Assembly (NCBI GenBank): GCA_003250475.1
Contig: QKGI01000064.1
Span: 1,629-65,628, forward strand
Direction: 5' to 3'
DNA from: Bacteroidota bacterium
GTDB taxonomy: Bacteria; Bacteroidota; Bacteroidia; Bacteroidales; VadinHA17
Length of the DNA: 64,000 bases
The notes beneath the pieces were generated by a model. The model saw only the letters and a list, made by a program, of their open reading frames with translations. It was not told the DNA's origin and did not search any database. The translations under genes were made by a program, and so were the position numbers. Below, one piece after another: positions 1-16,365 of this stretch (the first letter of the stretch is position 1; the number at the start of each line of letters is the position of its first letter).

Positions 1-741
1 CCGTCGATAGACAAGTACAGGAACGATGTCCCGGCACAGAAGGAGATGAGTTCCGACAAAAAGATACCAGTCAGGGAACTGTTCGTCAAGTATATCTTCA
101 AGAATAAGATACTATGGCTGATAGCAATAGCCAATGTCTTTGTTTACCTCATAAGATACGGCATCGGCGACTGGGCCCCCACCTACTGTGAAGAGGCCGG
201 GCTCCTTACCAGTGAGCAGAGCAAGATGGCTTTCTCTCTTCATAACTATGCAGGTGTGCCCGGCATGATACTCATCGGATGGATATCTTCGAAGCTCTTT
301 AAGGGACGGTGTGCACCTGTTAACGTCATTTATATGGTCCTGGTGCTGTTCAGCATACTGCTTTACTGGAAAGCCGTTCCCGTGGCCTCTTTTCTCTCCG
401 GTACTTTCGGAACCGACATGGATCATACCAGGGTGACGGTGGTCTATTCGGCATTGATAGCAATAGGGTTCTTCATCTACGGCCCGGTGGCCCTAATAGG
501 CGTGCAGGCCATTAACCTGGTACCCAAGAATGCAGCAGGGACAGCCGCAGGGTTCGTCGGACTCTTCGGATACCTCCTGGGTGACGCCCTGCTGTCAAAG
601 GTGCTGATCGGGGCTGTGGCTGACAATATAAAACTGGGATGGGAAGCAACATTCTGGATCTTCATCGTCGCAAGCATACTGGCAGCCATCTTCTCTGCCA
701 CCACATGGAAAACAGAAAAATCAAGTTACCACGGACAATAA
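1..741 (+). CDS. MFS organophosphate:phosphate antiporter (GlpT/UhpC-like), C-terminal part; 5' end outside window
   Basis: Frame 1 is open from base 1 (no stop before the listed Met at 46). Multi-TM protein with GlpT/UhpC-like stretch 'LIRYGIGDWAPTY...YAGVPGMILIGWISSKLFKGR'. Heads a phosphoesterase cluster. Confidence 0.7.
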   Translation, partial: PSIDKYRNDVPAQKEMSSDKKIPVRELFVKYIFKNKILWLIAIANVFVYLIRYGIGDWAPTYCEEAGLLTSEQSKMAFSLHNYAGVPGMILIGWISSKLFKGRCAPVNVIYMVLVLFSILLYWKAVPVASFLSGTFGTDMDHTRVTVVYSALIAIGFFIYGPVALIGVQAINLVPKNAAGTAAGFVGLFGYLLGDALLSKVLIGAVADNIKLGWEATFWIFIVASILAAIFSATTWKTEKSSYHGQ

Positions 742-751
742 TACGAGACCA

Positions 752-1681
752 ATGAAAAGACTCATTTCAACGATCCTTCTTACATACATCTGCCTCACAG
801 CTGCAGTAAATGCCCAGACATACCGTGAAATAGACGGATGGTCACAGGAGATCAATGACAGGATTGAAGGGTTCCTCAACACTACCCTGGCCATGAACAT
901 CAGGAAGGTTGCTGTGTTTGACAGTGACGGGACGACCTTCGGGCAGGTGCCATATTACCTGGCAGACGAGGCGCTCTACCGGTATGCCGACCTGGTGCTG
1001 AAGGAGCGTAAGGACAAGGAGGCAAAGGAGAAACTGAAGATCATCGCGCGGATGGTTAAGGACGGTAATAACGTGGGCAAGCCATACGTGGAGGACAGGG
1101 TTCATTTCCTGGCAGGTCTGACCCAGGAAGAGATAGAACGTATCGGTTATGATTGTTTCACAGAGTCATACCGCGGAAAGATATACCCGGAGATGCTGCA
1201 ACTGGTGGCTAACCTTAAGGAGTACGGATTTGAGGTCTACATCCTTACAGCGTCGCCTGAATTCCTTTATCAGAAATTCGTTTCCGAACAGTACGGCATA
1301 CCTGTTACAAATGTTCTCGGCGCCAAATGTGTCGTCAAGGATGGGGTGACAACGGATGAGATCATCCTCCCTATTCCCCAGGATGATGGCAAGGCTCATA
1401 CCATCGAAACATTTATCAAGACCCGTCCGCTTATCGTCGGAGGAAACAGCCGCGGTGACATGGACATGCTGAATGAGTCGGCAGGACTGAAGATAGTTGT
1501 CAATCCTGATGATATCACCGTTCGCGGTCCGCAGGACGGCCCGATGAACGGATATACCGTCAGGAGCTACTGGGAAAAGGAGGGTGCCCTGATAGTTAAG
1601 TGCAACGATGTCAGGGACATGAAGGTGAAGTTTCACACGGAAGAGTGGAAGATAAGGCAAAACATAGCTAATCCTAAATGA
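752..1681 (+). CDS. Secreted HAD-superfamily hydrolase (SerB/HAD-IB-like phosphatase)
   Basis: N-terminal signal peptide 'LLTYICLTAAVNAQ'. HAD motif I DxDxT in 'VAVFDSDGTTF'. Late 'GGNSRGDMDML' resembles HAD motif IV. Confidence 0.6.
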   Translation: MKRLISTILLTYICLTAAVNAQTYREIDGWSQEINDRIEGFLNTTLAMNIRKVAVFDSDGTTFGQVPYYLADEALYRYADLVLKERKDKEAKEKLKIIARMVKDGNNVGKPYVEDRVHFLAGLTQEEIERIGYDCFTESYRGKIYPEMLQLVANLKEYGFEVYILTASPEFLYQKFVSEQYGIPVTNVLGAKCVVKDGVTTDEIILPIPQDDGKAHTIETFIKTRPLIVGGNSRGDMDMLNESAGLKIVVNPDDITVRGPQDGPMNGYTVRSYWEKEGALIVKCNDVRDMKVKFHTEEWKIRQNIANPK

Positions 1682-1690
1682 TACAGGTAT

Positions 1691-2875
1691 ATGAAGAGAA
1701 AAACAATAATACTCATGGCACTGCTCCCTCTCCTGGCAGCAGGCTGCGCTCAAAGCAACAGGGCCACTGACGGCAGTGTGCAGGATTATATGCCCGACAA
1801 CGCTGTCATAGCCCACCGCGGGACAGTATACTGGGCACCGGAACTGACTGAAGCGGCATTCCGCTGGGCGCGTAACATGGGCGCCGACTACGTCGAGCTT
1901 GACGTCCAGAGGTCAAAAGACAGTGTCCTGATAATAATGCATGACAAGACCTTCAAGCGTACCACAAACGTGGCAGACATTTTTCCCGGAAGGGAGAGCG
2001 ATCCGGTAAGTACATTCACCTTTGAGGAGATAATGCAGCTGGATGCCGGCAGCGCCTTCAACAGAAAGAACCCGGAACAGGCGCTGGAGAGCTTCGCAGG
2101 AGAGGATGTCCTGGCTTTTGAAGATGTCTTCCGCATAGCCGAAGGGAAACGGATAAAGCGTGATGCCGGTGGCAACCGCCTGTTCACAAGGGACGGGAGC
2201 GGGGTATATCACTTCGAATATGAGGCCGACCCCGCAGATAAAGGGCACAGACCGGGAGTGTACATAGAGATGAAGAGCCCTGATGACTACCCGGGCATTG
2301 AGGAGCAGGTATATGACCTGCTGACAGCCATTGACTGGAACCCGCTCGAGGGCGCTATCCCCGCTGCTGACGAGCCCTTCGTCAGAGAAGGCAGGGTAAA
2401 TGTCGGTAACACAAGGGGTAAGATACTGGTACAGTCCTTCTCACGCAACGGTATGATGAACCTGAAGAGAGTATTCAGGGAGGCAGTGCCCGCCAGCTTC
2501 CTGGTGTCAAACCCCAAAACAGATGAATTTGCAAAAGAGGAGGTGATGGACGAGATTGTGAAATATGCGACTGAATGCGGAGCCCAGTTCATAGGTACCA
2601 ACCTGGGTGAGGTGAATGACGGCCTCTCCCCTGCCTTTGCCGGGAAGATCCATGCGGCAGGGCTGAAAGCCAACATATATTCTATCAACACCATCGAACA
2701 GATGGAAAAATATTTCGGCCCGGGCAAAGGGGCCAAAGCCGCTCCGCTGGCTGACGGCATGATCACCAACAGGAGCGACCTGACGATAGATTTCTACGCA
2801 GGCAGGCAGGTGCGCAAATATGGCACGGAGCAGACGCCGCAGGAGGTTCTAGCCGACCTGGGATATAAACAGTAA
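1691..2875 (+). CDS. Glycerophosphodiester phosphodiesterase (GDPD family) lipoprotein
   Basis: Lipobox 'LLAAGCAQ'. GDPD signature 'IAHRGTVYWAPELTEAAF...GADYVELDVQRSKDSVLIIMHD'. Confidence 0.8.
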   Translation: MKRKTIILMALLPLLAAGCAQSNRATDGSVQDYMPDNAVIAHRGTVYWAPELTEAAFRWARNMGADYVELDVQRSKDSVLIIMHDKTFKRTTNVADIFPGRESDPVSTFTFEEIMQLDAGSAFNRKNPEQALESFAGEDVLAFEDVFRIAEGKRIKRDAGGNRLFTRDGSGVYHFEYEADPADKGHRPGVYIEMKSPDDYPGIEEQVYDLLTAIDWNPLEGAIPAADEPFVREGRVNVGNTRGKILVQSFSRNGMMNLKRVFREAVPASFLVSNPKTDEFAKEEVMDEIVKYATECGAQFIGTNLGEVNDGLSPAFAGKIHAAGLKANIYSINTIEQMEKYFGPGKGAKAAPLADGMITNRSDLTIDFYAGRQVRKYGTEQTPQEVLADLGYKQ

Positions 2876-2888
2876 CGGAGAGGGATAG

Positions 2889-4838
2889 ATGCCAGAGATA
2901 AGGAAAATACTAATCATTCTTTTCGTGGCGGTGATGACCGCCTGTGCAGGGTGCAGGGAAGAACCCCTTCCACCAGAGGAGGAAGGACTTAATATTACAG
3001 GTATCTCGATCCCGTCGAGCATCAATGTGGCTCCCGGGGGTGAGATCACCATAACGGGCAAAGGCTTTGCTGCCGGCGACAGGATTGAGTTTGTATTAAC
3101 CAGCGACCCTGGCAAGGTTTACAGCAGCACAGTGACGGCCGTCACCGCCACGGGCGCCACCCTGGCACTGCCTGCAGGTATCTCGTCAGGCTCTTACAGC
3201 CTGACGGTGATTCGCGGTGACGAGAGCATGTTGCTTGGCACACTGACAATAAATGTCATTGCTGACAGTACCATCCCCGACAAGCCCGGGATGACATTAA
3301 AGGGAGTGGTGTATTGTGACGGTGAGGGAGTAGCAGGGGTGGTTGTTTCCGACGGAGTGGAGGTAACGGTTACTGACAGCCAGGGAATATATTACCTCCC
3401 TTCTGCCAAAGCCAACGGTTTTGTCTTCATCTCCCTGCCCGCCAACTATGAGATCGCCGCCAGCGATAACATACCTCAGTTCTTCGCACGGCTGTCGGGA
3501 GGCACTGCTGTTGAACAGCATGACTTCTCACTGCTGCATACCGACAACAGCAAACATGTCGTCATTCCAATGGCAGACTGGCACCTGGCCAACCGCAACA
3601 ACGACCTTACACAGTTTGCTGCCGGGTTTATCCCCGACGTAAATTCTACCATCGGCACCTATACCGCCGAAGGCATAAAGGTATACGGGGTACCCCTGGG
3701 CGACATGACATGGGATCTCTACTGGTACGACAATAATTTCAGGCTGCCGGATTACCTTACCGAGATGAAGAAGGTCAACTGCCAGATGTTCAATGTGATG
3801 GGCAACCATGACAATGATCCGTATGTAGCCTCCGACAGGGGCGCCGAGGAACCGTTCAGGGACATCCTCGGTCCCACATATTACTCCTTTAATCTCGGCG
3901 ATGTCCATTATGTCGTGCTTGATAATGTGCAATATATCAATGCCGGGGGCACGCAGGGGGTTGTGGGCGACCGCGATTACAACGATGTGGTGATCTCTGC
4001 ACAGACCGGCTGGCTGGCAAAGGACCTGGCAGCCGTTACGGATAAGAACAGGCCTCTTGTGATCTTCATGCACACGCAGCTGTATACCAACCCGACACTG
4101 AACGCATCAGGGGAGCAGGTAAGCAGCTTCGCCCTGGATAACGGAAGTACTCTCTATTCGCTCCTAAGCGCTTTCAGCGAGGTGCATGTGGTCACCGGAC
4201 ACACACACATCAATTACAATGTGGAATCAGGTAATGTGACGGAACATAATACTGCCGCAGTATGTGCCACCTGGTGGTGGACCGGCAAGACCGGCTATGC
4301 CGGCAACCATATCTGCAAGGACGGCAGTCCCGGCGGATATGGAGTGTGGGAAGCGGACGGCACAGGGCTGAAATGGTACTATAAGAGTATCGGATATCCG
4401 AAGGACTACCAGTTCAGGAGCTATGATCTCAACACCGTACAGATCACTGCTGCTGCATTCGCTCCCAACTCTACGGATGAAGCGCTGGCTGATTACGCAG
4501 ATGTCTATGCCAGTTCTAACCAGGTCAATGACGTCCTTCTGAATGTATGGGGATATGACCCTGGCTGGACCGTTGAGGTAAAGGAGGGTGAGACTCCTCT
4601 TACAGTTGAGCGGGTGACAGCCAAAGACCCGCTGCACATTATCTCATATGAAGCATTAAGACTGAACGCCGGTGCTGTTCCCACCAGCTCATTTGTCACC
4701 GGTAACACCGCTCACATGTTCAGGGTGAGGGCATCATCGGCTACCTCAACATTGGATATTACCGTTACCGACAGGTTTGGGAATGTGTACAGTGAGACAA
4801 TGACCCGGCCCAAGGAGTTCACATGGTCTATGCAATAA
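2889..4838 (+). CDS. Calcineurin-like metallophosphoesterase lipoprotein with N-terminal Ig-like (IPT/TIG-type) domain
   Basis: Lipobox-like 'VMTACAGC'. Metallophosphatase motifs 'GDMTWD', 'GNHDND', 'FMHTQ', 'GHTHINY'. N-terminal beta-rich region 'ITGISIPSSINVAPGGEITITGKGF'. Confidence 0.75.
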   Translation: MPEIRKILIILFVAVMTACAGCREEPLPPEEEGLNITGISIPSSINVAPGGEITITGKGFAAGDRIEFVLTSDPGKVYSSTVTAVTATGATLALPAGISSGSYSLTVIRGDESMLLGTLTINVIADSTIPDKPGMTLKGVVYCDGEGVAGVVVSDGVEVTVTDSQGIYYLPSAKANGFVFISLPANYEIAASDNIPQFFARLSGGTAVEQHDFSLLHTDNSKHVVIPMADWHLANRNNDLTQFAAGFIPDVNSTIGTYTAEGIKVYGVPLGDMTWDLYWYDNNFRLPDYLTEMKKVNCQMFNVMGNHDNDPYVASDRGAEEPFRDILGPTYYSFNLGDVHYVVLDNVQYINAGGTQGVVGDRDYNDVVISAQTGWLAKDLAAVTDKNRPLVIFMHTQLYTNPTLNASGEQVSSFALDNGSTLYSLLSAFSEVHVVTGHTHINYNVESGNVTEHNTAAVCATWWWTGKTGYAGNHICKDGSPGGYGVWEADGTGLKWYYKSIGYPKDYQFRSYDLNTVQITAAAFAPNSTDEALADYADVYASSNQVNDVLLNVWGYDPGWTVEVKEGETPLTVERVTAKDPLHIISYEALRLNAGAVPTSSFVTGNTAHMFRVRASSATSTLDITVTDRFGNVYSETMTRPKEFTWSMQ

Positions 4839-4872
4839 CCCAATATATATCACAAACTAAAACCACTAATCT

Positions 4873-7800
4873 ATGAAATTCAAACCAGATCTTAAGATTG
4901 TTCTTGCCACTCTCCTGATGGCACTGGTCATGTTGCCGGTGTCGGCGCAGGACAGGCAGGTGACAGGTACAGTTTTTGAGCCGGACGGTGTCACCCCGGT
5001 CTTCGGGGCCACCATAGTGCTTAAAGGGACTGCCACCGGTACCAGCACTGACAGCAAGGGTACCTATTCTATCAGGGTGACGGGCATAAACCCGGTGCTC
5101 GAGATACAGTTCCTGGGCTACATCAAACAGGAGATACCGGTGGGTGACAGGAGTGTCATCAATGTAACACTCCAGGAGGAAGCTATTGAGGTGTCAGCTG
5201 TTGTTGTCACTGCCCTGGGTATCACACGTGAAGAGAAATCTCTCGGATATGCCGTTACCAAGGTTGACAATTCTGATATCACACAGACTGTTGCCAGCAA
5301 CTGGCTCAACGGTATGTCAGGCAAGGTTGCCGGTCTTACCTTCAACAGCGCCAGTACCGGGCCCATAGCATCGATGCGCGTAACCCTCCGCGGGGACCAG
5401 TCGCTCAATTACGGTGCCAACGAAGCTCTCTTTGTCGTTGACGGCATTCCTATACGGTCAGGGACGACGGCCACCTCCTCAAGCAGTCCGTACACCAACT
5501 CGGGAGCCGACTTCCCCGTTGACTTCGGCAACGGCGCCAGCGACATTAATCCTGATGACATTGAGACCGTCTCGGTACTTAAAGGACCTGCAGCCACTGC
5601 CCTTTACGGCTCGCGCGCTGCCAACGGCGCCATAGTCATAACAACCAAGTCGGGACGCAAAGATAAAGGCATAGGCGTCACCGTCAACTCGTCGATGGTT
5701 GTCGAGAGAGCTGGATACTGGCCTGATTTCCAGACTCAGTATGGCTCCGGCTCAGACATGGGACTGAACGAATTCTGCTTCTGGACACTTGACCCGAGCC
5801 TTGTCGGCACTACCGACTACCCTTCCAGGAACCTCTCGCGTTACGCATGGGGTGAAGAGTTCAGTGAGGACAAGCTCCGTTACCAGTATGCGGGCAAAGA
5901 CTGGGAGACAGGAATGATCACAGCCACTCCTTTCGTTTACCAGGACGACTGGTTCACAGGGATATTCCAGGATGGTGTAACCCTTAACAACTCGATCGCT
6001 ATCAGCGGCAGCAACGGCGAGGGTACCAACACACGTTTCTCGGTCACGGATACACGTAACAAATGGATCCTGCCCAATACCGGGTTCAATAAGCAGGCCT
6101 ATGCTTTTTCCTTTGAAACACCCGTTAACAGATGGGTTGATTTCCAGACGAAAGTAAATTACTATCGTACTCAAAGCGACAATATGCCTATGGCAGGTTA
6201 CCATCAGACAACAGTGATGTATGACCTGATGTGGGGTTACAACTCAAACTCGATGAATGACTGGAAAACCGAATATTTTGAGGGCAGGTTCAACGAGATC
6301 AACAGGCTTGCCACGATATCGGAGAACGGTAATAGTCTCGTTGTTGCAGGCACCGGGTCATACAACCCCTACAGGGTACTGTATGAAGAGCTTAACTCCA
6401 CTGACAAGGACAGGGTGTTCGGCACCGCAGGCTTTACCGCCCGCCTGGCCGAAGGGCTCACTCTCGATGTCAAATCGGGAATGGATATGAGTACAGAGTT
6501 CCGGACCCAGAGAAAACCCAAGCTGACGTATGTCTGGAACAATGGTTTCTACAGGGAACAGTCGCTTGCCAATTTTGAGTTTAACACCGACTTCCTGCTA
6601 AGATACAAAAAGGATTTCTTTGAAGGCAGGCTTACCTCAACCGCCGCCTTTGGCGGAAATAATATGGTCCGTAAGTACAGAAGCAACACTGTTCAGCTCG
6701 ATGAACTGGATATTGATGGCATATACCATACCAATAATGTCCCCACGGGCATCAACCCCGATCCTTCAAACTACAGGAGTATCAAGGTGATTAACAGCCT
6801 GTACGGCTTCCTTAACTTCGGATGGAGAAACACCTATTTCCTTGACATAACAGGCCGTAACGACTGGTCGAGCACACTGTCAAGAGATTACTGGTCATAC
6901 TTCTACCCCTCGGTTGCTGCGAGCGTGTTGCTCGACCAGGCTTTCGACTTCGCAACAAACCTTCCGTTTGTCTCCTTTGCCAAGCTTAGGCTGTCATGGG
7001 CAAATGTCGGTAATGACACCAATCCCTATTCACTTGACCAGTACTACTCGGCCTCGTCAATCAGTGGCGGTCACACACTGCCGTCAGACATTACCGACCC
7101 GATGATCAAGCCTGAGAATATTGAGAGCTGGGAGCTGGGACTTGATGCCAGGTTCCTGAAAAACAGGCTTGGTTTTGACCTGGCGCTTTATAACTCGTCA
7201 GCCACAAACCAGATAATAGAAGTTGATGTTGACCCGATAGTAGGTATCTCATCAATAGAAATAAACTCGGGAGAGATCAACAACAAGGGTATCGAGGTAT
7301 CTATGTTTGCCACACCGGTCAGGACCAGGGACTTTACCTGGGACCTTAACTTCAACTGGGCAAAGAACAAGAACACGCTGGTCAGCATGAATGAGGGTTA
7401 TAACCCGGACCAGCCTATTGAAACCAACATGGGAACAACCATCGGGGGAAGATTACACGTCTATTCATATGTCGGGCAGGAGATGCATCAGATTTATGGC
7501 TTTGCCCTCCAGAGAGCCCCGGAAGGTTCTTACTATATCGATGACAACGGCAAGCAGGTCGACTGTTCAGGCATGGTCATCCTTGATGCCACGACAGGCC
7601 TGCCCTCGGTGGAGGCAACGGCTGACCACTTCCTCGGAAAGGTCAACCCCGACTGGAGAGGCGGCTTCAGCACCTCACTGAGATACAAGGGCCTTTCACT
7701 GAACATGGTATTCTCATACCAGTGGGGCGGACACAGGTATTCCGTCACAGACGGTATCCTCTCATACCAGGGCAAGCTCACCAACTCACTTGAAGGCCGT

Positions 7801-8205
7801 TATGACGGGATCGTGGCAGAAGGAGTAAATGTGCTGTCAACAAACGACGACGGTTCTGCTGTATGCCAGGTCAACAATACCGTAACGAGCAATATCTACA
7901 CCTACTACCAGTCGCGTACACTCGATCGTTACCTGGGTGAAGCCCACACATACAGCACCTCTTTCCTTAAGTTCAAGGAGGTAAGACTTGAATACGCCCT
8001 TCCTGCTGCACTCTGTAGCAAGACAAACGTGCTGCAGAATGCCAGCATTGCTGTCTTTGCCACCAATATATTCAGCTGGGATAAGTGGCCGCAGTTCGAT
8101 CCTGAAGGTGGTATAATGACCGGCACTAATGTCTTCAACGGTATTGAAGCCGGTGCGTTCCCTATGACCCGCACCCTGGGTGTTAACCTGAAACTGTCAT
8201 TCTAA
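4873..8205 (+). CDS. SusC/RagA-type TonB-dependent outer-membrane transporter
   Basis: 1110 aa. CarboxypepD_reg-like N-terminus 'VTGTVFEPDGVTPVFGATIVLKGT'. Plug motifs 'DGIPI' and 'SVLKGPAATALYGSRAANGAIVITTKSG'. C-terminal beta-barrel ending in F. Followed by SusD. Confidence 0.9.
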   Translation: MKFKPDLKIVLATLLMALVMLPVSAQDRQVTGTVFEPDGVTPVFGATIVLKGTATGTSTDSKGTYSIRVTGINPVLEIQFLGYIKQEIPVGDRSVINVTLQEEAIEVSAVVVTALGITREEKSLGYAVTKVDNSDITQTVASNWLNGMSGKVAGLTFNSASTGPIASMRVTLRGDQSLNYGANEALFVVDGIPIRSGTTATSSSSPYTNSGADFPVDFGNGASDINPDDIETVSVLKGPAATALYGSRAANGAIVITTKSGRKDKGIGVTVNSSMVVERAGYWPDFQTQYGSGSDMGLNEFCFWTLDPSLVGTTDYPSRNLSRYAWGEEFSEDKLRYQYAGKDWETGMITATPFVYQDDWFTGIFQDGVTLNNSIAISGSNGEGTNTRFSVTDTRNKWILPNTGFNKQAYAFSFETPVNRWVDFQTKVNYYRTQSDNMPMAGYHQTTVMYDLMWGYNSNSMNDWKTEYFEGRFNEINRLATISENGNSLVVAGTGSYNPYRVLYEELNSTDKDRVFGTAGFTARLAEGLTLDVKSGMDMSTEFRTQRKPKLTYVWNNGFYREQSLANFEFNTDFLLRYKKDFFEGRLTSTAAFGGNNMVRKYRSNTVQLDELDIDGIYHTNNVPTGINPDPSNYRSIKVINSLYGFLNFGWRNTYFLDITGRNDWSSTLSRDYWSYFYPSVAASVLLDQAFDFATNLPFVSFAKLRLSWANVGNDTNPYSLDQYYSASSISGGHTLPSDITDPMIKPENIESWELGLDARFLKNRLGFDLALYNSSATNQIIEVDVDPIVGISSIEINSGEINNKGIEVSMFATPVRTRDFTWDLNFNWAKNKNTLVSMNEGYNPDQPIETNMGTTIGGRLHVYSYVGQEMHQIYGFALQRAPEGSYYIDDNGKQVDCSGMVILDATTGLPSVEATADHFLGKVNPDWRGGFSTSLRYKGLSLNMVFSYQWGGHRYSVTDGILSYQGKLTNSLEGRYDGIVAEGVNVLSTNDDGSAVCQVNNTVTSNIYTYYQSRTLDRYLGEAHTYSTSFLKFKEVRLEYALPAALCSKTNVLQNASIAVFATNIFSWDKWPQFDPEGGIMTGTNVFNGIEAGAFPMTRTLGVNLKLSF

Positions 8206-8222
8206 TCATTAACTGACACGAA

Positions 8223-9800
8223 ATGAAAAAGTTGAAAATAATCATAATATGTGGGTTTGTACTGGGTTCACTCTTCTCATGCACAAGAAATTTTGAAGAG
8301 ATCAATACCAATCCCAACAAGACTACCGTGGGCATGATTCAAGCCTCCGGTATGTTCGAGCCTATACTTTACAACTCAGCCAACCAGTGGCTTTACCGTA
8401 CCTGGTACTATAACGATGAGCTCATCCAGTTCACCGCTTTCACCGGGGGTGTGACAAGAAGGGAGCACCAGTATTTCCTTGAGGATTCAAGAGACTGGTA
8501 CGGGTTCTGGAACCACTATGCCACCTATGGCAAGAACGTGGACCATATGTACGATCTGGCCGTGGAACAGGGAGACGAATCACTTGAGGCCATAGCACTC
8601 ACTTTCAAGGTATTGTTCTTTGCCAACATGACTGACATGTTCGGCAGCGTGCCCTATGTTGAGGCCTTTACAGGAAGAAAGCTGGGCGGCACCCTCACAC
8701 CGGTGTTCAACACCCAGGAGGAGATATACCAGCTGATGTTCGAAGACCTTGAGGAGGCCAACGCCATCTATGCCACCAACCCTGTCTTCCTGATCCCCTC
8801 GATGGACGGTATGTACGGAGGTAACATGGCTGCCTGGAGAAAGTTCAACAACTCACTCTACCTGAGGCTCCTCTGCAGGATAAGCGGCAGGTCGGAGATG
8901 AATGCAGGGGCGAAAATGACAGAGATACTCAACAATCCTTCAACGTATCCTATTTTTACTTCCAACGCTGATAATGCTGCAGTGAAATTCACAGGCAATG
9001 ATCCGTATATAAGTGAATTCGGGACTACGACAGAGAGTGACTTCACCTCCAGCGGGAGGAAGCTGACTGAACAGCTTATCAAAATGACCGTCGAGACTGA
9101 CATCAACGGCAACCAGGTCTATGTTGACCCCCGTCTGCCGGTCATCGGCAAGAAAAACCCGAATGCCGTTGTCAACCCCGATAACATATGGAAAGGAACG
9201 GTATCAGGATGCACTGATCTCGAGAGAAGTACTGTCGACATCGGCACCTCATGGCTCAATTACAGGATTTTCTGCAGGAAGGATGCCCCGGCCACATATA
9301 TGGATTATGCAGAGACGCGTTTCATCTTTGCTGAAGCTGCACTTAAGGGCTACATCGCAGGAGGACAGGCTGCTGCAAAGAACTATTATGAAGCCGGAGT
9401 AAGGGCATCGATGGAGAAATGGTCGGAGCAGGGAGCCTACTCAGACCCTGCAGTTACTATCACCTCCGCAGAGGTTGACGCCTACCTGGCCTCTTCTCTC
9501 GGCTCATGGGATCTTGCTGCCGACAAGGAAGAGTTCCTCGGCAACCAGAAATACCTGGCTCTCTTCTGGGTGGGTATGGAGGCCTATCATGAATACCGCA
9601 GGACCGGCTACCCGGTGCTGACCATCGGGGAGGGCACGATCTATAACGACCATGTTCTGCCCACCCGCCTAGGATACCCCAATATCACCATCACTACCAA
9701 CAGTGCAAATGCAAATGCAGCCCTGGAGGAGATGGGTGGCCCGAACGACATGAAGACACCGGTATGGTGGAGCAAACAGGCTATCACCGGAGGCAAATAA
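8223..9800 (+). CDS. SusD-like outer-membrane lipoprotein
   Basis: Lipobox 'GSLFSC'. 525 aa TPR-like helical protein immediately downstream of SusC. 'YHEYRRTGYP' motif typical of the SusD-like_2/3 group. Confidence 0.85.
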   Translation: MKKLKIIIICGFVLGSLFSCTRNFEEINTNPNKTTVGMIQASGMFEPILYNSANQWLYRTWYYNDELIQFTAFTGGVTRREHQYFLEDSRDWYGFWNHYATYGKNVDHMYDLAVEQGDESLEAIALTFKVLFFANMTDMFGSVPYVEAFTGRKLGGTLTPVFNTQEEIYQLMFEDLEEANAIYATNPVFLIPSMDGMYGGNMAAWRKFNNSLYLRLLCRISGRSEMNAGAKMTEILNNPSTYPIFTSNADNAAVKFTGNDPYISEFGTTTESDFTSSGRKLTEQLIKMTVETDINGNQVYVDPRLPVIGKKNPNAVVNPDNIWKGTVSGCTDLERSTVDIGTSWLNYRIFCRKDAPATYMDYAETRFIFAEAALKGYIAGGQAAAKNYYEAGVRASMEKWSEQGAYSDPAVTITSAEVDAYLASSLGSWDLAADKEEFLGNQKYLALFWVGMEAYHEYRRTGYPVLTIGEGTIYNDHVLPTRLGYPNITITTNSANANAALEEMGGPNDMKTPVWWSKQAITGGK

Positions 9801-9818
9801 CCGCAAAAATATCTAGAG

Positions 9819-11057
9819 ATGAATAAAAATATTTCCAACATATTGATAAGGAGAGCATGGCATATCTTTCCGTTGTTGTTGCTCCCCGTACTCCTTCTCA
9901 CCTCCTGTGAGGAGAAGATTGTCCAGGAGGATCCGTACTTTTCAATAGAGGGAGACCCTACAGGACTGACCGCAACCGTGAAGGCAAAAACCGCGAGTTA
10001 TGTTGTACGCTCCAACAGGCACTGGGACGTGGTGAAGCAGGGTGACTCCGACTGGGTGAAGGCCTTCCCTGCTAAGGGTGATGACGATGGCATTTTCAAG
10101 ATTATAGTAGATGCAAACCCGACTTTCTACACCCGTACCGAGAACTTTGCCTTTGTTGTCGACGGCGAAGAACAGCCTGTGCTTTTCAGGGTTGACCAGG
10201 AGGCAAACGTGCCATACATAACCATGCCTGACACCGTGACAGTACTTGCAGCAGGAGGTGAATTCACTGTCACAGGCACTGCCAATGTTCCGTGGAACTA
10301 CTCACTGGTCAACGGCTCGTGGCTGACTGAAGTAGGCACCACCGCGACATCCATTACATTCAGCGCTACTGAAAACACAAGCATCGATAAGCGTTATGCC
10401 ACACTGACAGTGACTTCGATAGAGTTCCCCTCCGTTTCCGCGACAGTTACCCTTACACAATCTGCAGGTACAGTGGTGCTTGAGGAAAACTTCAGCTGGC
10501 TTGAATATGGTAGTGCGGTATTCTACACCACCACAGGCGAGACCCGCTATGACAACTGGACACAGGAGCAGAAGGATATGGGATGGGTCAGCGAGGTCAG
10601 CCCGATAGCCACGGCAGGAGGCACGCCTCTCTGTTACGCCCGCCAGGGATTTGTCAAGCTGGGTAAGACAGGATATGGAGGCGACCTTTACTCCCCTGCC
10701 CTGTCAAAGATCGTCGGCACAACCGACGTTCTCGTGACCTTCAAGGCTATACCCTATATGACAGCTGCCGGGACGAAGGATGATAACTTCCTCAATATAT
10801 TCGTCATAGGCCCCGGAACGATAAGCCAGAGCCAGTTTATCATCGACAACTGGCCCGTTTACCCGGCCGAGTCGGTCGAAGCATATTGCATAGGGATGTG
10901 GAGTGCACCGGAGGCTACACGTACTTTCACCATTACAGGCGCGACTGCCGAGACCAAGATAAAATTCCTCGGCGGCGACTATGACCTTGTAGGTGTCGGT
11001 GCGGGTAAGAACCGTATTTTCCTTGATGATGTCAAGGTTGAGATCATACTGCCATAG
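9819..11057 (+). CDS. PUL-associated surface lipoprotein with BACON-like repeats, function unknown
   Basis: Lipobox 'LLLTSCEE'. Two Ig-like/BACON-like segments ('RSNRHWDVVKQGDSDWVKAFPAKGDDDG', 'ANVPWNYSLVNGSWLTEVG...ATLTVTS'). Positioned as third gene after SusC/D. Confidence 0.5.
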   Translation: MNKNISNILIRRAWHIFPLLLLPVLLLTSCEEKIVQEDPYFSIEGDPTGLTATVKAKTASYVVRSNRHWDVVKQGDSDWVKAFPAKGDDDGIFKIIVDANPTFYTRTENFAFVVDGEEQPVLFRVDQEANVPYITMPDTVTVLAAGGEFTVTGTANVPWNYSLVNGSWLTEVGTTATSITFSATENTSIDKRYATLTVTSIEFPSVSATVTLTQSAGTVVLEENFSWLEYGSAVFYTTTGETRYDNWTQEQKDMGWVSEVSPIATAGGTPLCYARQGFVKLGKTGYGGDLYSPALSKIVGTTDVLVTFKAIPYMTAAGTKDDNFLNIFVIGPGTISQSQFIIDNWPVYPAESVEAYCIGMWSAPEATRTFTITGATAETKIKFLGGDYDLVGVGAGKNRIFLDDVKVEIILP

Positions 11058-11080: not shown

Positions 11081-11123
11081 AAAAAGGGGTGCCGGCCATA
11101 ACAGACCGGCACCCCTCATTTTT
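11081..11123. terminator. Bidirectional intrinsic terminator hairpin (copy 1 of an identical 43-bp sequence)
   Basis: 'AAAAA GGGGTGCCGG ccataacaga CCGGCACCCC TCATTTTT': perfect 10-bp GC-rich stem, 10-nt loop, A-run upstream and T-run downstream. 24 nt after the stop of 9819..11057. Confidence 0.7.
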
Positions 11124-11343
11124 AAACAGCCACTGCTCCACCAGCCGGGATTCCCCAGATAAATTTGTCATTGTCAGCTGCAACTGTCTTTTGATCATAG
11201 TCAGGACCGGTTTCAATCAGGTTGATTTTCTGTGGGGTAGACCTGCTGAATCCCAGGTGCCACCTTTTAAGGTCATCAAGTCTCATCCCTTCACAGATAA
11301 GTTCCCTTGTTCTTTCTTCCCTGATTGCATTTATAAGATCAGA
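11122..11343 (-). pseudogene. 3' remnant of a SusD-like gene
   Basis: Minus-strand frame reads 'DLINAIREERTRELICEGMRLDDLKRWHLGF...DKFIWGIPAGGAVAV*'. This matches the conserved SusD C-terminus (compare intact SusD here: 'AILQERSVELCYEGHRWFDLVRTG...LVWPI'). The frame is closed by a TGA just upstream, and the neighbouring frame carries 'FNDISLDLIL*', consistent with a frameshift. No N-terminal part is present. Confidence 0.55.
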
Positions 11344-11570
11344 TCAAGGGAAATATCATTGAACTGCTGTCCTGCTAAATTGTTCCACAATATCATTATG
11401 AAAAATATAGTTGAAATTTCTTTTCTCCGCATTATTTTTTCTTTGGTGTTTATCAATAGTGTCCAGGCATATCTAACAGCCATTTTTCAATTGTTTTACT
11501 ATTTTAGAGTATGATAAAAACGATTTCCAGGTTGTACTTTCCCTTACGTTTTCTTTTCGGCACAAATCTA

Positions 11571-11819
11571 TCATATCAAAATACCGGTATGGGCATATGT
11601 CGCACCACATGTCCTTTTCGTAATACCCTCGAGGAAATACCAATAGTATGTTTTACCAGTTACTTTCGAGAGAGTAAACTCACCACCCTTATATACAGGA
11701 AGTGTAAAATCTGCTAAAGGATTTTATAAGAAAGCCATTTCCATTGGTTTTATCCCGGAGTAAACACAAGTTACACCTGATAATAGCAGAGCTATGGCAA
11801 CACAGATTTTTCTAATCAT
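11571..11819 (-). pseudogene. Possible decayed lipoprotein gene (redoxin/TlpA-like N-terminus) interrupted by an in-frame stop
   Basis: Minus strand: 'MIRKICVAIALLLSGVTCVYSGIKPMEMAFL*NPLADFTLPVYKGGEFTLSKVTGKTYYWYF...'. It has a signal peptide plus lipobox, then a TAA. The 'DFTLP..G.EFTLS...GK' pattern is typical of AhpC/TSA-type thiol-disulfide oxidoreductases, but there is no CxxC and the frame stops early. Confidence 0.3.
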
Positions 11820-11856
11820 TACTGACTGATTTAGTTCAAGTAAATAAGGGCTATAA

Positions 11857-13581
11857 CTATTTTATCTTTTTTAAGGGAATATTTTTAAAATGTGGCTCGT
11901 CAGTCCTCAAATCAACACATTCTCCATCACTGGTAAAGAACAATCCGGGTAAATATTCTTCACATTTTAAGTCCATTGCATTAAGATACCCGTTTTTAAT
12001 GGTTATCTCAATTTGAAATACTGTTGTATCCTGTAATTCGCCATATTTATATCTGCAATAGGTTCCAAGATATTTCGACCACTCTTTTTTATTTGGGCCA
12101 ATAGGATCGTTTGGACCATAATTATATTCAAAAACGAATCTGCACCTGCTACCATAAGCACGATGCATTTGTAATAACGACGGCTTTTTGCCTTGGTGAT
12201 ATGGACTTAAAAATCTTATTTCGCTGTACTTTCCAAGCATACCCACAAGCTCACCATTATCATTATAAAAATTTAACGGATAAAAATCATTATCGATACC
12301 ATACCCCAAAATACTGTCTTTGTAATATATCGATCGGCTATTCCACGGTGGTCCGTAGGTACCAATAACCGCTTCTACCTGTTCATCCTCATTGGCCAGC
12401 TTTGTCATGGATTCAACTCGCGAAGGGTCAATAGGTGTATCACCATAATATTTTGAAAGGACGTCTTCTACAATGTTCTTAAATGCCATTGCAGATAAAT
12501 TTGTTCTGGAATCAAGGTTCTGATCATTGGTTAAAAGGAAGATTCCCAGGTTTTTTTCAGGGTACATAATCATATTGCTGCTAAAGCCATACCCTCTTCC
12601 TAACTTATAAGCCAAATAACTATCACATACCGGTTCAATCTCAAGGTTTATTCCTTCTCCAGCTCGCTGATCTGGACACGCAAACTGAATCTGATACATT
12701 TCTTTTATCAAGTCTTCACGAAGTATTCTCTTTCCATCAACAACCCCATTATTTAAAAAGAACTGAATGTAATTAACCATATCATTTAAACTCATATATT
12801 CGGCTCCTGCACCCAGCATTGGAATGTAGAGAGGATACTTTCCACTAATTGGTACTGCCCTGTTCTTATTCTTTTCGATTTCAACAAAATCTAACGATGA
12901 ATTTTTCATTTCAAGAGGATCAAAAATTCTTTGTTTAACATACTCTTCGAAGGTCAAACCTGTTTTCTCCTGCAAAATATAAGCTGCCAGATCGAGCCCA
13001 AGGTTGGAATAGGCAAACCTTGTCCCAACGGGATAACGAAGCCAGGTATCAGAGATACTTCTAATATGTTCTTCAAAATTTTTACAGAGAGTAAAGCTGC
13101 TTCCAAGAGGTGCTTCGTGCGTAAAACCTGCCCGGTGCGTTAATAAGTGTCTTATTGTTATTATATCCGCTGGAGACTTATCATAAATACTATTTACTTT
13201 AAATTCTGGCAGGTATTTTTTAATGGGTGTATCCAAATCTAATATGCCATCCTGAACCGCAATGAGTACTGCGATTGTGGTAACCGTTTTTCCCATGGAC
13301 TGAATACTAAATATAGTAGATGGATCAATGGCCCTTGATTTTGTAGTATCAGTATATCCAATTGTATTATGCCACATGACGCTTTTGTTATTTACAAAAG
13401 CCACTGCAATACCGGGAGTTTCTGACCCGATTTTGGCGGTTTCAGAAACAAACAGACTGTCAATCTTTTGAATGATCTCATTTGTTATTATATCATAGGA
13501 TTGCCTTGCATTTTGAGCAGCAGAATGGTAATTGGCACAAAAAGCAAAAGTTAAAATCAGAAAAAGTGTAATTTTTTTCAT
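11857..13581 (-). CDS. Secreted serine hydrolase of the beta-lactamase/class-C/esterase family with extra C-terminal domain
   Basis: Signal peptide. S-x-x-K 'SIQSMGKTV' and Y-x-N 'FAYSNLG'. 574 aa, about 200 aa longer than a plain class C fold. Confidence 0.8.
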   Translation of the reverse strand: MKKITLFLILTFAFCANYHSAAQNARQSYDIITNEIIQKIDSLFVSETAKIGSETPGIAVAFVNNKSVMWHNTIGYTDTTKSRAIDPSTIFSIQSMGKTVTTIAVLIAVQDGILDLDTPIKKYLPEFKVNSIYDKSPADIITIRHLLTHRAGFTHEAPLGSSFTLCKNFEEHIRSISDTWLRYPVGTRFAYSNLGLDLAAYILQEKTGLTFEEYVKQRIFDPLEMKNSSLDFVEIEKNKNRAVPISGKYPLYIPMLGAGAEYMSLNDMVNYIQFFLNNGVVDGKRILREDLIKEMYQIQFACPDQRAGEGINLEIEPVCDSYLAYKLGRGYGFSSNMIMYPEKNLGIFLLTNDQNLDSRTNLSAMAFKNIVEDVLSKYYGDTPIDPSRVESMTKLANEDEQVEAVIGTYGPPWNSRSIYYKDSILGYGIDNDFYPLNFYNDNGELVGMLGKYSEIRFLSPYHQGKKPSLLQMHRAYGSRCRFVFEYNYGPNDPIGPNKKEWSKYLGTYCRYKYGELQDTTVFQIEITIKNGYLNAMDLKCEEYLPGLFFTSDGECVDLRTDEPHFKNIPLKKIK

Positions 13582-13926
13582 GGTTATTGTAATTAATTAG
13601 AATGTTAGAAAGCTTACTTAATGACGATAGGCGTATAATGCTGCTGCACAAATAGATAGTTATTCTGCCAGTGGCATTATATGTCTGCGAATAAGCGCTT
13701 TTCTATGACAAAATGATTGAGATGTACTCGAAGAATTCGAATTTGCCGGTTTTTTAAGCAGGATTAACAAAGTGGTCTGACTAATTGGACACTATTCGTC
13801 TCCATTGAATAGTGGTCTGCGTTCTGTGTTACCAATAATTCCGACTATCCCTTTTGTAAGGTTTACTGTCTTTATAATCTTATCGAAGCTGACATCATTT
13901 TTCTCATCATCCGGACCATTTAAGCT

Positions 13927-14463
13927 TTAATCTATTTTTTGTCTGAACACAATGGTATGTCCGGGCAACCAGGGTCCAAAAGCATTCATAAACCATCTGT
14001 CGATGAGGTTTCCCTCAGGTGTCAGCTCAAATGAGTTTTTAAAGCCGTAGGATTGCTTTACTCCTTGCTCCTTTTTTGTTGGCCAGGTCATTATGCCTTC
14101 AATAGTGAATGTGTTTCCAGCCCAAGCTACACTTCCTGTCTGGAACACACCACTTTGTTCTATAAAGAAGGAATGGATTTCAGCCTCAACGTCATTCCAG
14201 TAGAAAAACCCCTCGCCCACCATTCCATTGAAAGAGCTCTGCCGCCTTATTTTAAGTGCATTTCCTTCACCAAACAGTTCAAAGGTGAGGACCACCGTTG
14301 AGATTTTCTCCCCATCCGGAGACAGAAGATCACCTTCCCATGTTTTTCCGGCCAAAGGCAGGAAAGAGGCAAGTCGCGGATTGAAATCCTGAGCACATAT
14401 AAGGTTGAATGACCTGAGAAGAAGGAGTAGTACAAAAGCTGGGATAAATAATCTGCCTTTCAT
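13927..14463 (-). CDS. Small secreted protein, unknown function (beta-rich)
   Basis: 178 aa with signal peptide 'LFIPAFVLLLLLRSFNLICAQ'. No motif recognised. Low-GC codon usage like its neighbours. Confidence 0.45.
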   Translation of the reverse strand: MKGRLFIPAFVLLLLLRSFNLICAQDFNPRLASFLPLAGKTWEGDLLSPDGEKISTVVLTFELFGEGNALKIRRQSSFNGMVGEGFFYWNDVEAEIHSFFIEQSGVFQTGSVAWAGNTFTIEGIMTWPTKKEQGVKQSYGFKNSFELTPEGNLIDRWFMNAFGPWLPGHTIVFRQKID

Positions 14464-14563
14464 GATAATCAGAATTTAAAAGTTATGTAAAATCTTAGCG
14501 GGTTAAGAAAACAGACAGCATGGTCCGGAGCGGATCAACAGAAACAAAGAATAAAAAGCAAAT

Positions 14564-15298
14564 TCATAAGTACCTCTCTCTAAGGATGTTATAAAACGTC
14601 CGACTTAAAGATACCGGCTCAGGGTGATTCTTTAGAAACACTTTCGCGGTAGATGTGGAATTTCTTACAATTCTGTCGATATGGTTCATATTGACAATAA
14701 AAGATCTGTGTATTCTGATGAAGTGCTCTGCCGGCAGGCGGTTCATCCAGTCTACCATTGATCTCATAATCAGACTTTTCTTTCCGTCGATGGTTTCAAT
14801 GGTCGTATAATCGCGTGCAGCAGATATCATGGTTACATTTTCAAGAAGCACAAATCTGATCTGGTTTTTCTCCAGCACCAGAATCCGGTCAGAATACCTG
14901 TACCTGGCCGATCCCGGGATACTCTCCAGTACCACTGGGGGATCAGATGATCTTACCCTGTCAATTGCTGCCTGCAATCTCTCCTGTGAAATTGGTTTAA
15001 GAAGATAATCCAGTGCATTGATCTCAAAAGCCCGGAAAGCGTACTCATCAAAGGCAGTAATGAAAACCACCTTCCCGCAAAACTCTATTTTGTCCAGGAG
15101 GTCAAAACCGGTTCCTTCAGCAAGTTGAATATCAAGAAAAAGGATTTCGGGTTTGAGGGCACTGATCTCGGCAACTGCCATTTGCATCCGTGTTGACTCT
15201 CCAACTATTACAATCTCCGGGAACTGTTCAAGTCTCTTTTTAAGTGAGCGAATGGCGAGGGGCTCATCATCTACAATATAGGCGGATAATGTTTTCAT
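14564..15298 (-). CDS. LytTR-family response regulator
   Basis: Receiver domain 'YIVDDEPLA...LFLDIQLAEGTGFDLL'. C-terminal LytTR 'FIRIHRSFIVNMNHI'. 4-bp overlap with the upstream kinase gene. Confidence 0.85.
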   Translation of the reverse strand: MKTLSAYIVDDEPLAIRSLKKRLEQFPEIVIVGESTRMQMAVAEISALKPEILFLDIQLAEGTGFDLLDKIEFCGKVVFITAFDEYAFRAFEINALDYLLKPISQERLQAAIDRVRSSDPPVVLESIPGSARYRYSDRILVLEKNQIRFVLLENVTMISAARDYTTIETIDGKKSLIMRSMVDWMNRLPAEHFIRIHRSFIVNMNHIDRIVRNSTSTAKVFLKNHPEPVSLSRTFYNILRERYL

Positions 15299-16365
15299 TC
15301 TCCTGTCTGGATTTCAATTGTAATATGGACCATACCTTCAGTCTTTTCTATGTTGAGTTTATAACTGTCAGGATATGCATTCTGTAGTCTTTCAAATACA
15401 TTCCTGATGCCTGTACCCTCATTATCAGACTCAAACCACATTCCGTTGTTGATTACTTCGAGGATAAGCAATCGACCCCGGCGAAATCCGTTAACCATTA
15501 TATTCAGTGAATCAGGAGAGGCTTTCATCCCGTATTTTACAGCATTTTCGACGAAGGGTTGCAGGATGAAAGCAAGGACTTCAACATCTGATGCCTCGCT
15601 GGTAACGTTGATCTCAAAGTTCAGTCTGTCAGGAAACCGCACCTTTTCCAGAGACAGATACTTTTCAACAATAATAACTTCCTCCCTGAGCGGGATAAAC
15701 AGCTTATCCTTGTCCCTGATAGTGTACCTTAAAAAGTCTGACAGCTGGGATATCATCCTGTCGGCATTTGAAGGGTCCTCGTAAATCAGGGCCTGAATCG
15801 AGTTAAGAGAGTTGAACAGGAAATGCGGATTTAGCTGGTATCGGAGCATTTTCAGCTGAGATTTCTGAGCCAGAAGGGCAGCTTTCTGAGAGCGTTCCTT
15901 TTCCTTCATAAGTTCCAGCCAGAATTTAATTCCAAAATATAACAGGCTCCAGATAACAAGAGGGAACGCAAGAAAGAAGGTTCTGCTCAGAAATTCCGAC
16001 AGGTCGGCCGGTTTAGAGACAGTTACATCCCATCTTGTCAGAAACTCGACAATATGCTCCAGCAGAAAAGTGTTAAAAAGAACCCATATAGCAGCGGAAA
16101 AAAATGAAAGCAATAATCCGCTCACGGCAATCAATATGAACCCCGGCCGTCTGTTGAACAACTTCCTGTATACTTTTCTCAGCACCAGGGTTATCAAAAA
16201 GAGGAACGACATTGACAAAGTCCACCGGAACGTATCCTGAAATCCCTTTAACTCATTATAAAACTGAATATACTGCTGGAAATAAAAAACAACCCATCCA
16301 GTTATCTGAAAAAACCAGAACCCCGGAGTCCTTGCCAGCAGGCCGTTATTTCCTCCTCCTTTCAT
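15295..16365 (-). CDS. Membrane sensor histidine kinase (LytS/YehU-type His_kinase domain)
   Basis: N-terminal TM helices. 'LRYQLNPHFLFNSLNSIQALI' H-box region. HATPase 'ILQPFVENAVKYG' and 'NEGTGIRNV'. Confidence 0.8.
   Translation of the reverse strand: MKGGGNNGLLARTPGFWFFQITGWVVFYFQQYIQFYNELKGFQDTFRWTLSMSFLFLITLVLRKVYRKLFNRRPGFILIAVSGLLLSFFSAAIWVLFNTFLLEHIVEFLTRWDVTVSKPADLSEFLSRTFFLAFPLVIWSLLYFGIKFWLELMKEKERSQKAALLAQKSQLKMLRYQLNPHFLFNSLNSIQALIYEDPSNADRMISQLSDFLRYTIRDKDKLFIPLREEVIIVEKYLSLEKVRFPDRLNFEINVTSEASDVEVLAFILQPFVENAVKYGMKASPDSLNIMVNGFRRGRLLILEVINNGMWFESDNEGTGIRNVFERLQNAYPDSYKLNIEKTEGMVHITIEIQTGE

Follow-up and report, generated by a model that had tools for sequence, protein, structure and literature searches.

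The first seven genes of a 64,000-nt stretch of genomic DNA from a Bacteroidota bacterium (assembly GCA_003250475.1, contig QKGI01000064.1, positions 1,629 to 65,628; hereafter the window) form a real operon, in which a SusC/SusD importer is joined by phosphodiesterases and glycerol-3-phosphate catabolism and not by sugar-cutting enzymes. We read them as the distal seven genes of a glp-linked operon that resembles a polysaccharide utilization locus (PUL) and acts on extracellular glycerol-phosphate phosphodiesters, an interpretation to which we give a probability of about 0.6. All seven open reading frames lie on the plus strand within window positions 1–11057, with the same coordinates as in a preliminary description made from the sequence alone (Table 1). 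The intergenic gaps are, in order along the operon, 10, 9, 13, 34, 17 and 18 nt. An intrinsic terminator follows 27 nt past the last stop codon; its hairpin has a calculated energy of -24.5 kcal/mol (z = -4.86), and none of 200 shuffled sequences was equally stable. No convincing terminator was found within the operon. Since the gaps are short (9–34 nt) and the end terminator is strong, the genes were taken as one operon.

The search of all seven products against Pfam and NCBIfam bore out the earlier description of a Sus-like locus with phosphoesterases and no carbohydrate-active enzyme (CAZyme): no product matched a family of glycoside hydrolases (GH), polysaccharide lyases (PL) or carbohydrate esterases (CE). 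For the two proteins of 412 and 649 aa, the structures modelled with AlphaFold contained Ig/β-sandwich and metallophosphoesterase folds only. A glycoside hydrolase hidden in either protein is thus ruled out by the Pfam and NCBIfam searches together with the predicted folds.

Table 1. Features of the operon and of its upstream continuation. Positions without a prefix are window positions; C125 and C35 are contigs of the same genome, the window lying on C35.
Feature	Position	Strand	Evidence or remark
glpR (DeoR/GlpR-type regulator)	C125:38736-39497	-	3′ end of contig
glpD	C125:40080-41267		3′ end of contig
Sulfatase, residues 41-304	C125, up to contig end		
Sulfatase, residues 323-584	C35, contig start		
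glpT-type organophosphate:phosphate antiporter, 3′ part (246 codons)	1..741	+	TIGR00712, MFS_1
Secreted HAD-IB family phosphatase	752..1681	+	PF12710, 7.6e-14; TIGR01490
GlpQ-type glycerophosphodiester phosphodiesterase (GDPD) lipoprotein	1691..2875	+	PF03009, 5e-24
TIG-metallophosphoesterase (MPE) lipoprotein, 649 aa	2889..4838	+	Pfam TIG + MetallophosN + Metallophos + MetallophosC
SusC/RagA-type TonB-dependent transporter, no STN	4873..8205	+	TIGR04056, 571 bits; CarbopepD_reg_2 + Plug only
SusD-like lipoprotein lid	8223..9800	+	PF12771, 5.6e-79; PF12741, 1.2e-57
BACON surface lipoprotein, 412 aa	9819..11057	+	BACON x2 (1.3e-12) + C-terminal domain without family
Intrinsic terminator closing the operon	11085..11124	+	11-bp G/C-rich hairpin, then UCAUUUUU

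SusCD transporters have long been regarded as glycan importers. Organophosphate import by two Flavobacterium SusCD pairs was shown only in 2020–2026: the low-phosphate (Pi)-induced "Pus" loci of F. johnsoniae have PusCD pairs beside phosphodiesterases (Lidbury et al. 2021, PMC8115612), and PusCD1/2 were found by genetics and cryo-EM to import glycerophosphoinositol (GroPI) and IP1 (Connolly et al. 2026, bioRxiv 10.64898/2026.09.03.749221). The Flavobacterium precedent mentioned in the preliminary description is therefore real. The locus analysed here is an uncharacterised variant of these PusCD organophosphate systems.

Extent and conservation of the operon

The gene order and common direction given in the preliminary description were correct, except that the locus does not start at window base 1 and continues upstream beyond both the window and the contig. 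The window begins 1628 nt into contig C35. The complete glpT encodes 484 aa (L002:915-2369), its first 714 nt lying upstream of window base 1; on its 5′ side a 107-nt spacer separates it from a sulfatase gene, of which this contig end has the 3′ portion. In relatives, the genes usually found 5′ of glpT are a formylglycine (fGly) sulfatase with the motif CSPSR, an FAD glycerol-3-phosphate dehydrogenase and a divergent DeoR-family regulator. The domains of these upstream orthologues are DAO and DAO_C for the dehydrogenase (GlpD) and DeoRC and HTH_DeoR for the regulator. In our genome, such genes lie at the 3′ end of contig C125. Because C125 and C35 carry complementary sulfatase residues, we conclude that they abut inside the sulfatase gene, where the assembly break was likely caused by the many sulfatase paralogues of this genome. 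Pieced together in this way, the full locus would read glpR (divergent from) glpD-sulfatase-glpT-HAD-GDPD-MPE-SusC-SusD-BACON.

The identical gene order recurs in dozens of genomes, which argues that the arrangement is not due to chance. A contig scan returned 222 relatives of the MPE; the neighbours of the best 80 of these 222 were clustered, and the frequencies given here refer to the 48 loci that held MPE, SusC and SusD. The constant core MPE-SusC-SusD-BACON was found in four orders, namely Bacteroidales, Cytophagales, Sphingobacteriales and Flavobacteriales. The BACON protein was encoded at 42 of the 48 core loci, GlpT at 29, GlpD at 27, the DeoR regulator at 23, GDPD at 14, HAD at 11, the sulfatase at 9, GlpK at 7 and GlpF at 5. 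In 33/48 cases the core was accompanied by one or more genes of glp type (glpT, glpD, DeoR regulator, GDPD, glpK or glpF within 10 kb). Two Cytophagales loci (L028, L029) have the DeoR gene directly divergent from the MPE-SusCD-BACON core, and some Sphingobacterium genomes show the order glpD-glpK-glpF-SusC-SusD-DUF5689-MPE-MPE-GlpT. Pairs of extracytoplasmic function (ECF) sigma factor and FecR were seen in a few related loci (L015, L022, L042, L050).

Across the syntenic loci SusC was 48–85% identical, with 33–35% in four Sphingobacterium loci. SusD is the best conserved component, its identity between orders reaching 79–84% (up to 79% for Bacteroidales versus Cytophagales), and it matches only PF12771 and PF12741, the SusD-like_2/SusD-like clade of Pfam. 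The BACON protein is patchily distributed: 17 of the 37 species in the own genus have it, no copy turned up in 24 other families of the order, and an even phylum-wide sample of 401 genomes gave the own genome as the sole carrier, although the first-look filter of that survey may miss distant copies. Carriers of the locus include metagenome-assembled genomes with record labels of lake sediment, biofilm and other environmental samples, as well as the cultured Phocaeicola coprophilus, Gaoshiqia hydrogeniformans, Sinomicrobium weinanense and Sphingobacterium spp.

Predicted route and substrate

The analysis itself establishes which genes are present, that their catalytic motifs are intact, the synteny with glp genes, the distribution of export signals, the domain fusion and where the operon ends. 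From these we infer the enzymatic steps, the localisations, the effector of the regulator and the substrate as follows. At the cell surface the BACON/β-sandwich lipoprotein would, judging from its anatomy, bind the substrate, and the TIG-metallophosphoesterase would act as a diesterase and cut it to importable pieces, which SusC/SusD would take in with TonB energy. In the periplasm the GlpQ-type GDPD would free sn-glycerol-3-phosphate (plus an alcohol), while the HAD-IB phosphatase would strip monoester phosphates. GlpT would then swap glycerol-3-phosphate for phosphate across the inner membrane, and GlpD, encoded just upstream, would oxidise it to dihydroxyacetone phosphate, the substrate thereby serving as a source of both carbon and phosphorus. 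The divergent DeoR/GlpR-type regulator, which probably responds to glycerol-3-phosphate, is the most likely controller.

The GDPD has intact catalytic motifs (HRG...ELD...HD), and residues H42, R43, E69, D71, H84 and D85 are invariant among 16 orthologues. A profile of these orthologues covers the whole TIM barrel of the Gram-positive GlpQ structures 4r7o, 2oog and 5t91 (E 4e-35 to 3e-33), with an insert of about 40 aa at residues ~149–189. Of these, 5t91 is the B. subtilis enzyme, which trims unsubstituted glycerol-phosphate teichoic acid, and 2oog is S. aureus GlpQ, which is reported to act on glycerophosphocholine (GroPC). The best model for GlpT was TIGR00712 with 521.5 bits, aligned end to end (residues 1–478 to model positions 1–439 of 440); the second-best organophosphate antiporter model, PgtP, reached 346 bits. 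The earlier proposal that a GlpQ-type GDPD yields sn-glycerol-3-phosphate, which then enters by a GlpT-type antiporter, is supported, and SusCD remains the likely entry for a phosphodiester compound. The HAD-IB protein possesses an ordinary signal peptide (AVNA/QT) and the motif FDSDGTT; its 15 orthologues are 66–85% identical with an invariant DxDGT, and its relatives in the PDB are uncharacterised HADs only. The signal peptide suggests a periplasmic location for this phosphatase.

The MPE motifs D230xH232, GD272, GNHD305-308, H395 and GHTH437-440 show no variation among 32 orthologues. No solved structure was found to match the MPE by sequence. In a comparison of its model (pLDDT 85.6), the best solved fold was the cyclic-nucleotide phosphodiesterase Rv0805 (E 6e-8), and because this is the closest fold we read the MPE as a predicted phosphodiesterase and not a monoesterase.

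Acidic residues following the lipobox cysteine are the surface-export pattern of Bacteroidota lipoproteins. We counted acidic residues at positions +2 to +6 after this cysteine and scored two or more as positive. The motif was present in 31/32 BACON proteins (CEEKIV in the window) and 19/32 MPEs, and in none of 16 GDPDs; the window GDPD has a lipoprotein signal and likewise lacks the acidic motif. In the window MPE, CREEP follows the lipobox as a putative surface-export signal. The pattern predicts a layout with the BACON protein and the MPE outside the cell, and the GDPD lipoprotein, like the HAD protein, in the periplasm. The MPE thus probably acts at the cell surface, before import. The preliminary description had assigned both diesterases to the periplasm; this may well apply to the GDPD, and the export signal of the MPE, together with a fusion to the C-terminal domain of the BACON protein, speaks against it for the MPE.

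The model of the BACON protein (pLDDT 92) is all-beta and comprises three beta domains. Its C-terminus is a conserved β-sandwich of ~195 aa that lacks a Pfam match throughout 32 members and displays the conserved motifs LEE(D/N)FSW, YARQGFVKLGK, VTFKA and NRIFLDD. The domain is rare, with 204 representative clusters among 1.84 billion proteins. A Foldseek search with the whole model returned generic tandem-Ig matches only, which were uninformative on the C-terminal domain. A metagenomic protein of 1085 aa (P0021) has two copies of the domain (33–34% identity) followed by MetallophosN-Metallophos-MetallophosC, and this latter part is 40% identical to the MPE family of the window over 596 aa. 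The fusion argues that the C-terminal domain binds the substrate as a partner to the diesterase, a role that we therefore propose for the BACON protein as a whole. Other relatives of the domain are joined to up to four BACON repeats, to a Fib_succ_major domain or to DUF4988.

The presence of an enzyme and a binding protein at the surface, and the fusion between the two, speak for a substrate that is polymeric or bound to cells. Our preferred candidate, put forward tentatively, is a glycerol-phosphate polymer or oligomer like those of teichoic acids, and deacylated phospholipid head groups follow as a close second that is nearly as likely. It is somewhat doubtful that the operon is a dedicated teichoic-acid utilisation locus, by which a Gram-negative bacterium would capture poly(glycerol phosphate) of Gram-positive walls, bind it with the β-sandwich, cut it with the surface MPE and import the oligomers through SusCD to obtain carbon and phosphorus.

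Several findings weigh against the interpretation as a glycerol-phosphate phosphodiester operon or against parts of it. The 521 bits of GlpT fall short of the NCBIfam equivalog cut-off of 632, and 13 of 32 MPEs lack the acidic export motif. Many core loci are devoid of GDPD, HAD and GlpT, and therefore glycerol-3-phosphate need not be the product everywhere. The operon contains no esterase or glycosidase for the D-alanyl and glycosyl substituents of teichoic acids, and the conserved fGly sulfatase is unexplained by a pure glycerol-phosphate substrate. Finally, the very high conservation of SusD would equally suit a small invariant ligand.

This last point belongs to the alternative that survives best, namely that the system takes up small glycerophosphodiesters only, such as GroPC, glycerophosphoethanolamine (GroPE), glycerophosphoglycerol (GroPG) and GroPI from deacylated lipids, with no polymer involved. 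We regard it as possible but not probable. It would resemble PusCD1 with GroPI/IP1, the SusD identities across orders are what one small ligand would produce, and S. aureus GlpQ (2oog), with its reported activity on GroPC, is among the best matches of the GDPD. In addition, pusCD-like pairs adjoining glpQ homologues are mentioned in the 2026 preprint, solely as something that "should be explored" (bioRxiv 10.64898/2026.09.03.749221). However, a diesterase with a surface signal, a surface binding protein and the fusion of the two fit a scheme in which a polymer is captured and cut before import, and a surface diesterase would destroy small diesters outside the cell.

Control of the operon

DeoR-type regulators typically sense sugar phosphates. 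The presence of glpD and a DeoR-type regulator, with glpK and glpF elsewhere, argues that the carbon skeleton is used and not phosphate alone. From the linkage of these genes, control by GlpR appears more probable than control by the Pho system. The scavenging proposed in the preliminary description is modified by glpD, the divergent DeoR/GlpR gene and the glpK/glpF of other members, which point to glycerol-3-phosphate catabolism more than to a pure supply of phosphate.

The Pho cluster noted earlier elsewhere in the window is real and consists of pstSCAB-phoU-phoBR at 42202–49025. Four TGTAAC/TGTAAT units with an 11-bp phase are located at 40920–40958, 5′ of a porin-like gene that precedes pstS, and a -7-like TATTTTG follows 11 nt on. 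The array is kept in 19 of 37 same-genus genomes, with TGTCAC variants, and three-unit matches numbered 40 compared to 1 in a reversed-pattern control. Because of this conservation and the excess over the control, the array is a credible candidate Pho box for this lineage.

The glpT promoter reads TGTAACaaaaaGTTAAC, then TATTTG 35 nt later. It contains one perfect TGTAAC and a degenerate second unit, and the former lies 52 nt upstream of the -7-like TATTTG, a distance that is likewise ~50 nt for box 1 of the pst-side array. Among 11 orthologous glpT promoters the conserved block is T(G/T)TAA(C/T)A-N4-nTTAA(C/T), with the invariant columns T.TAA.A....TTAA and AATATT.G. We scored the site with a position weight matrix (PWM) built from the pst arrays of the own genus. 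It reached 8.5 bits, a low score due to the second unit (unit 1 +10.7, unit 2 -2.2), and 612 genome positions score as high. Two phased TGTAAC-type units with at most two mismatches occur at 15 intergenic sites of the own genome, compared to ~13 expected by chance in a hand estimate. Of the phased TGTAAY boxes for which the preliminary description suggested a search, one perfect copy is thus present, and the partner unit is degenerate and the combined score commonplace. We do not call the element a Pho box: it is conserved, but its PWM score is common and two-unit sites are about as frequent as by chance. It is a candidate conserved regulatory site and may give a second input besides GlpR. No clear copy was found in the glpR-glpD intergenic regions.

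Weak two-unit TGTAAC-type sites were also seen before pgk (C14:34592), a PPi-dependent phosphofructokinase (C112:28055), an ATP-phosphofructokinase (C155:24168) and a 945-aa TonB-dependent receptor (C164, minus strand), in a number that is about that of chance and may mean nothing. By eye, GAAA(T/C/G)/TTTC blocks with a spacing of ~5 or 10–11 bp were noted in the DeoR-MPE spacer of L028/L029 and in the glpD/glpT promoters of relatives (L011 ...ctgAAAGAAACGAAAGAttgacaatattgg); they are a possible candidate for the GlpR operator.

A Pho-regulon scavenging system, which PhoBR would switch on at phosphate depletion as in F. johnsoniae Pus1/Pus2 and which would supply phosphorus and not carbon, seems unlikely to us. 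The expression of B. subtilis glpQ is Pho-controlled, the perfect TGTAAC before glpT has the -7 spacing of box 1 and belongs to the main conserved block of the orthologous promoters, and the operon and the pst/pho cluster are linked in the genus at distances of 3.5–30 kb. Furthermore, the Pus loci respond to low Pi (PMC8115612). On the other hand, the PWM score and the chance-level site count provide little for such a switch, the conserved neighbours are glpD and the DeoR regulator with no Pho gene adjoining, and a GlpD is sensible only when the carbon skeleton is consumed. Based on the promoter and the gene neighbourhood, PhoBR is likewise an improbable main controller of the operon, even if it might contribute.

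In two congeners (G431:C44 and G432:C14) the Pho-box array is ~3.5 kb from the BACON gene, compared to 23–30 kb in the own genome and in G429 and G417. Between the operon and the pst/pho cluster the DNA is variable and includes an amino-sugar PUL and, in the own genome, the island at 11–17 kb; the two clusters stay linked.

Relation to known systems and weaker alternatives

The locus shares with the Pus systems a SusC/SusD-like pair that is co-localised with phosphodiesterases and phosphatases in place of CAZymes, a calcineurin-like diesterase and an enzyme of the PLC/GDPD superfamily beside the transporter, and, here as a prediction, an organophosphate cargo akin to the head groups of glycerophospholipids. 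It differs in its SusD, which belongs to PF12771/PF12741, whereas PusD1 and PusD2 are pf07980 + pf14322 (PMC8115612, Table 1), a comparison made by published Pfam assignments. In contrast to Pus1, neither the window nor C125 encodes a PI-PLC or an ECF sigma/anti-sigma pair, the SusC has no STN domain, and the diesterase is predicted to be surface-exposed, while the Pus1 enzymes are predicted to be periplasmic. The locus also adds GlpT, GlpD, the DeoR/GlpR regulator, a surface BACON/β-sandwich protein and the sulfatase.

Another close analogue is the E. coli glp regulon (glpTQ divergent from glpACB, glpD, GlpR). In both, GlpT is followed by a periplasmic GlpQ-type enzyme, a dehydrogenase and a DeoR-family repressor are linked, and glycerophosphodiesters are a carbon source, as we propose here too. 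E. coli relies on porin diffusion, whereas the present locus has the TonB-dependent SusCD, a surface diesterase, a binding lipoprotein, a secreted HAD and a sulfatase homologue. By analogy, the locus can be regarded as the Bacteroidota counterpart of glpTQ/glpACB/GlpR plus an outer-membrane import stage.

In B. subtilis, teichoic acid is recycled under phosphate starvation by GlpQ (exo) and PhoD (endo). The likeness lies in the GDPD, whose nearest solved relatives are Gram-positive GlpQ enzymes, and in the pairing with a second metal-dependent diesterase. This second enzyme is, however, not of the PhoD family but Rv0805-like and calcineurin-type (MetallophosN/Metallophos/MetallophosC), and the host is Gram-negative and would prey on the polymers of others. 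Compared to a classical glycan PUL (SusCD + SusG + SusE/F), the division into a surface enzyme, an Ig-spaced binding lipoprotein, SusCD import and periplasmic exo-enzymes is similar. The difference is that glycoside hydrolases and lyases are absent, every enzyme is a phosphoesterase, and the glp pathway supplies the steps at the inner membrane and in the cytoplasm. Searches of the literature for teichoic acid with SusD, and for a calcineurin-like phosphoesterase with SusC/D and BACON, gave no characterised homologue.

The family of loci connects SusD proteins of another clade directly with the glycerol-3-phosphate pathway, brings in components for capture and cleavage at the surface, which imply that the substrate is a polymer, and spans Bacteroidota of sediment, soil, termite gut and animal gut. 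If the substrate is teichoic acid or lipid head groups, it would provide Bacteroidota with a route to recycle the P- and C-rich necromass of other bacteria, and the family-less β-sandwich would be a new kind of phosphopolymer-binding module. If it acts on teichoic acid, no earlier system of the PUL type would have been directed at a cell-wall polymer other than a carbohydrate, and the locus would define a new binding-module family. The question is directly testable, as cultured carriers exist.

Orthologues of the fGly sulfatase with the CSPSR motif were found in L021, L027, L030 and L034 and on the upstream contig of the window, mostly 57–83% identical (40% in L034), and depending on the lineage the gene occupies one of three positions, namely the glpD-glpT interval, the GDPD-MPE interval or 3′ of the BACON gene. 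The fGly "sulfatases" include phosphodiesterases and phosphonate-monoester hydrolases, and the homologue here matches PehA with 96 bits. The protein is perhaps a diesterase built on the sulfatase fold, or else the substrate may be sulfated.

The latter would suit a glycoconjugate or lipid head group that has phosphodiester linkages and may be sulfated, such as inositol-phosphoglycans of the glycosylinositol phosphorylceramide (GIPC) type or glycans decorated with phosphoglycerol, with glycerol-3-phosphate as one product among several. The recurrence of the sulfatase is consistent with such a substrate, as are the BACON domains, which are common in glycan loci, and the calcineurin-like diesterase of Pus1, which has been likened to GIPC phospholipase C. 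We nevertheless consider it improbable, since a glycosidase is absent from the operon and from most related loci and the sulfatase homologue may simply be a further diesterase.

A weak NCBIfam match links residues 272–408 of the BACON protein to the type IX secretion (T9SS) surface endonuclease family NF052644 (E 3.5e-5), the founder of which degrades DNA and RNA (PMC12398890). A locus for extracellular DNA or RNA, with the C-terminal domain as surface nuclease or binder and the MPE trimming oligonucleotides or cyclic phosphates, is nonetheless very unlikely and was rejected as the leading explanation: besides this match it can draw on the hydrolysis of cyclic nucleotides by Rv0805-type enzymes and on lamin-tail-domain proteins that adjoin some related loci, but the match lies far under the cut-off (23 versus 260 bits), a nuclease fold cannot be recognised in the domain, which is an all-beta sandwich, the locus encodes neither a transporter for nucleosides or nucleotides nor a nucleotidase or nucleoside hydrolase, and the conserved neighbours are glp genes.

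Downstream of the operon, at ~18286–21495, the window carries two genes, one for a DUF6340-like lipoprotein and one for a GH20-PA14 protein. In the related loci L003, L004, L007 and L041 the BACON gene is followed directly by this pair. The GH20 gene near related loci is on the opposite strand and part of the next PUL. Because the BACON gene of relatives directly precedes the pair, the lower-GC stretch at 11081–17185 was identified as an insertion specific to the own genome. Inside it, at 11857–13581 on the minus strand, a 574-aa serine hydrolase of the β-lactamase fold is encoded (PF00144, AmpH/D-aminopeptidase-like). S. aureus FmtA, a teichoic-acid D-alanine esterase, has a β-lactamase fold as well. 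Since relatives have no such island, the position of the serine hydrolase beside the operon is probably coincidental.

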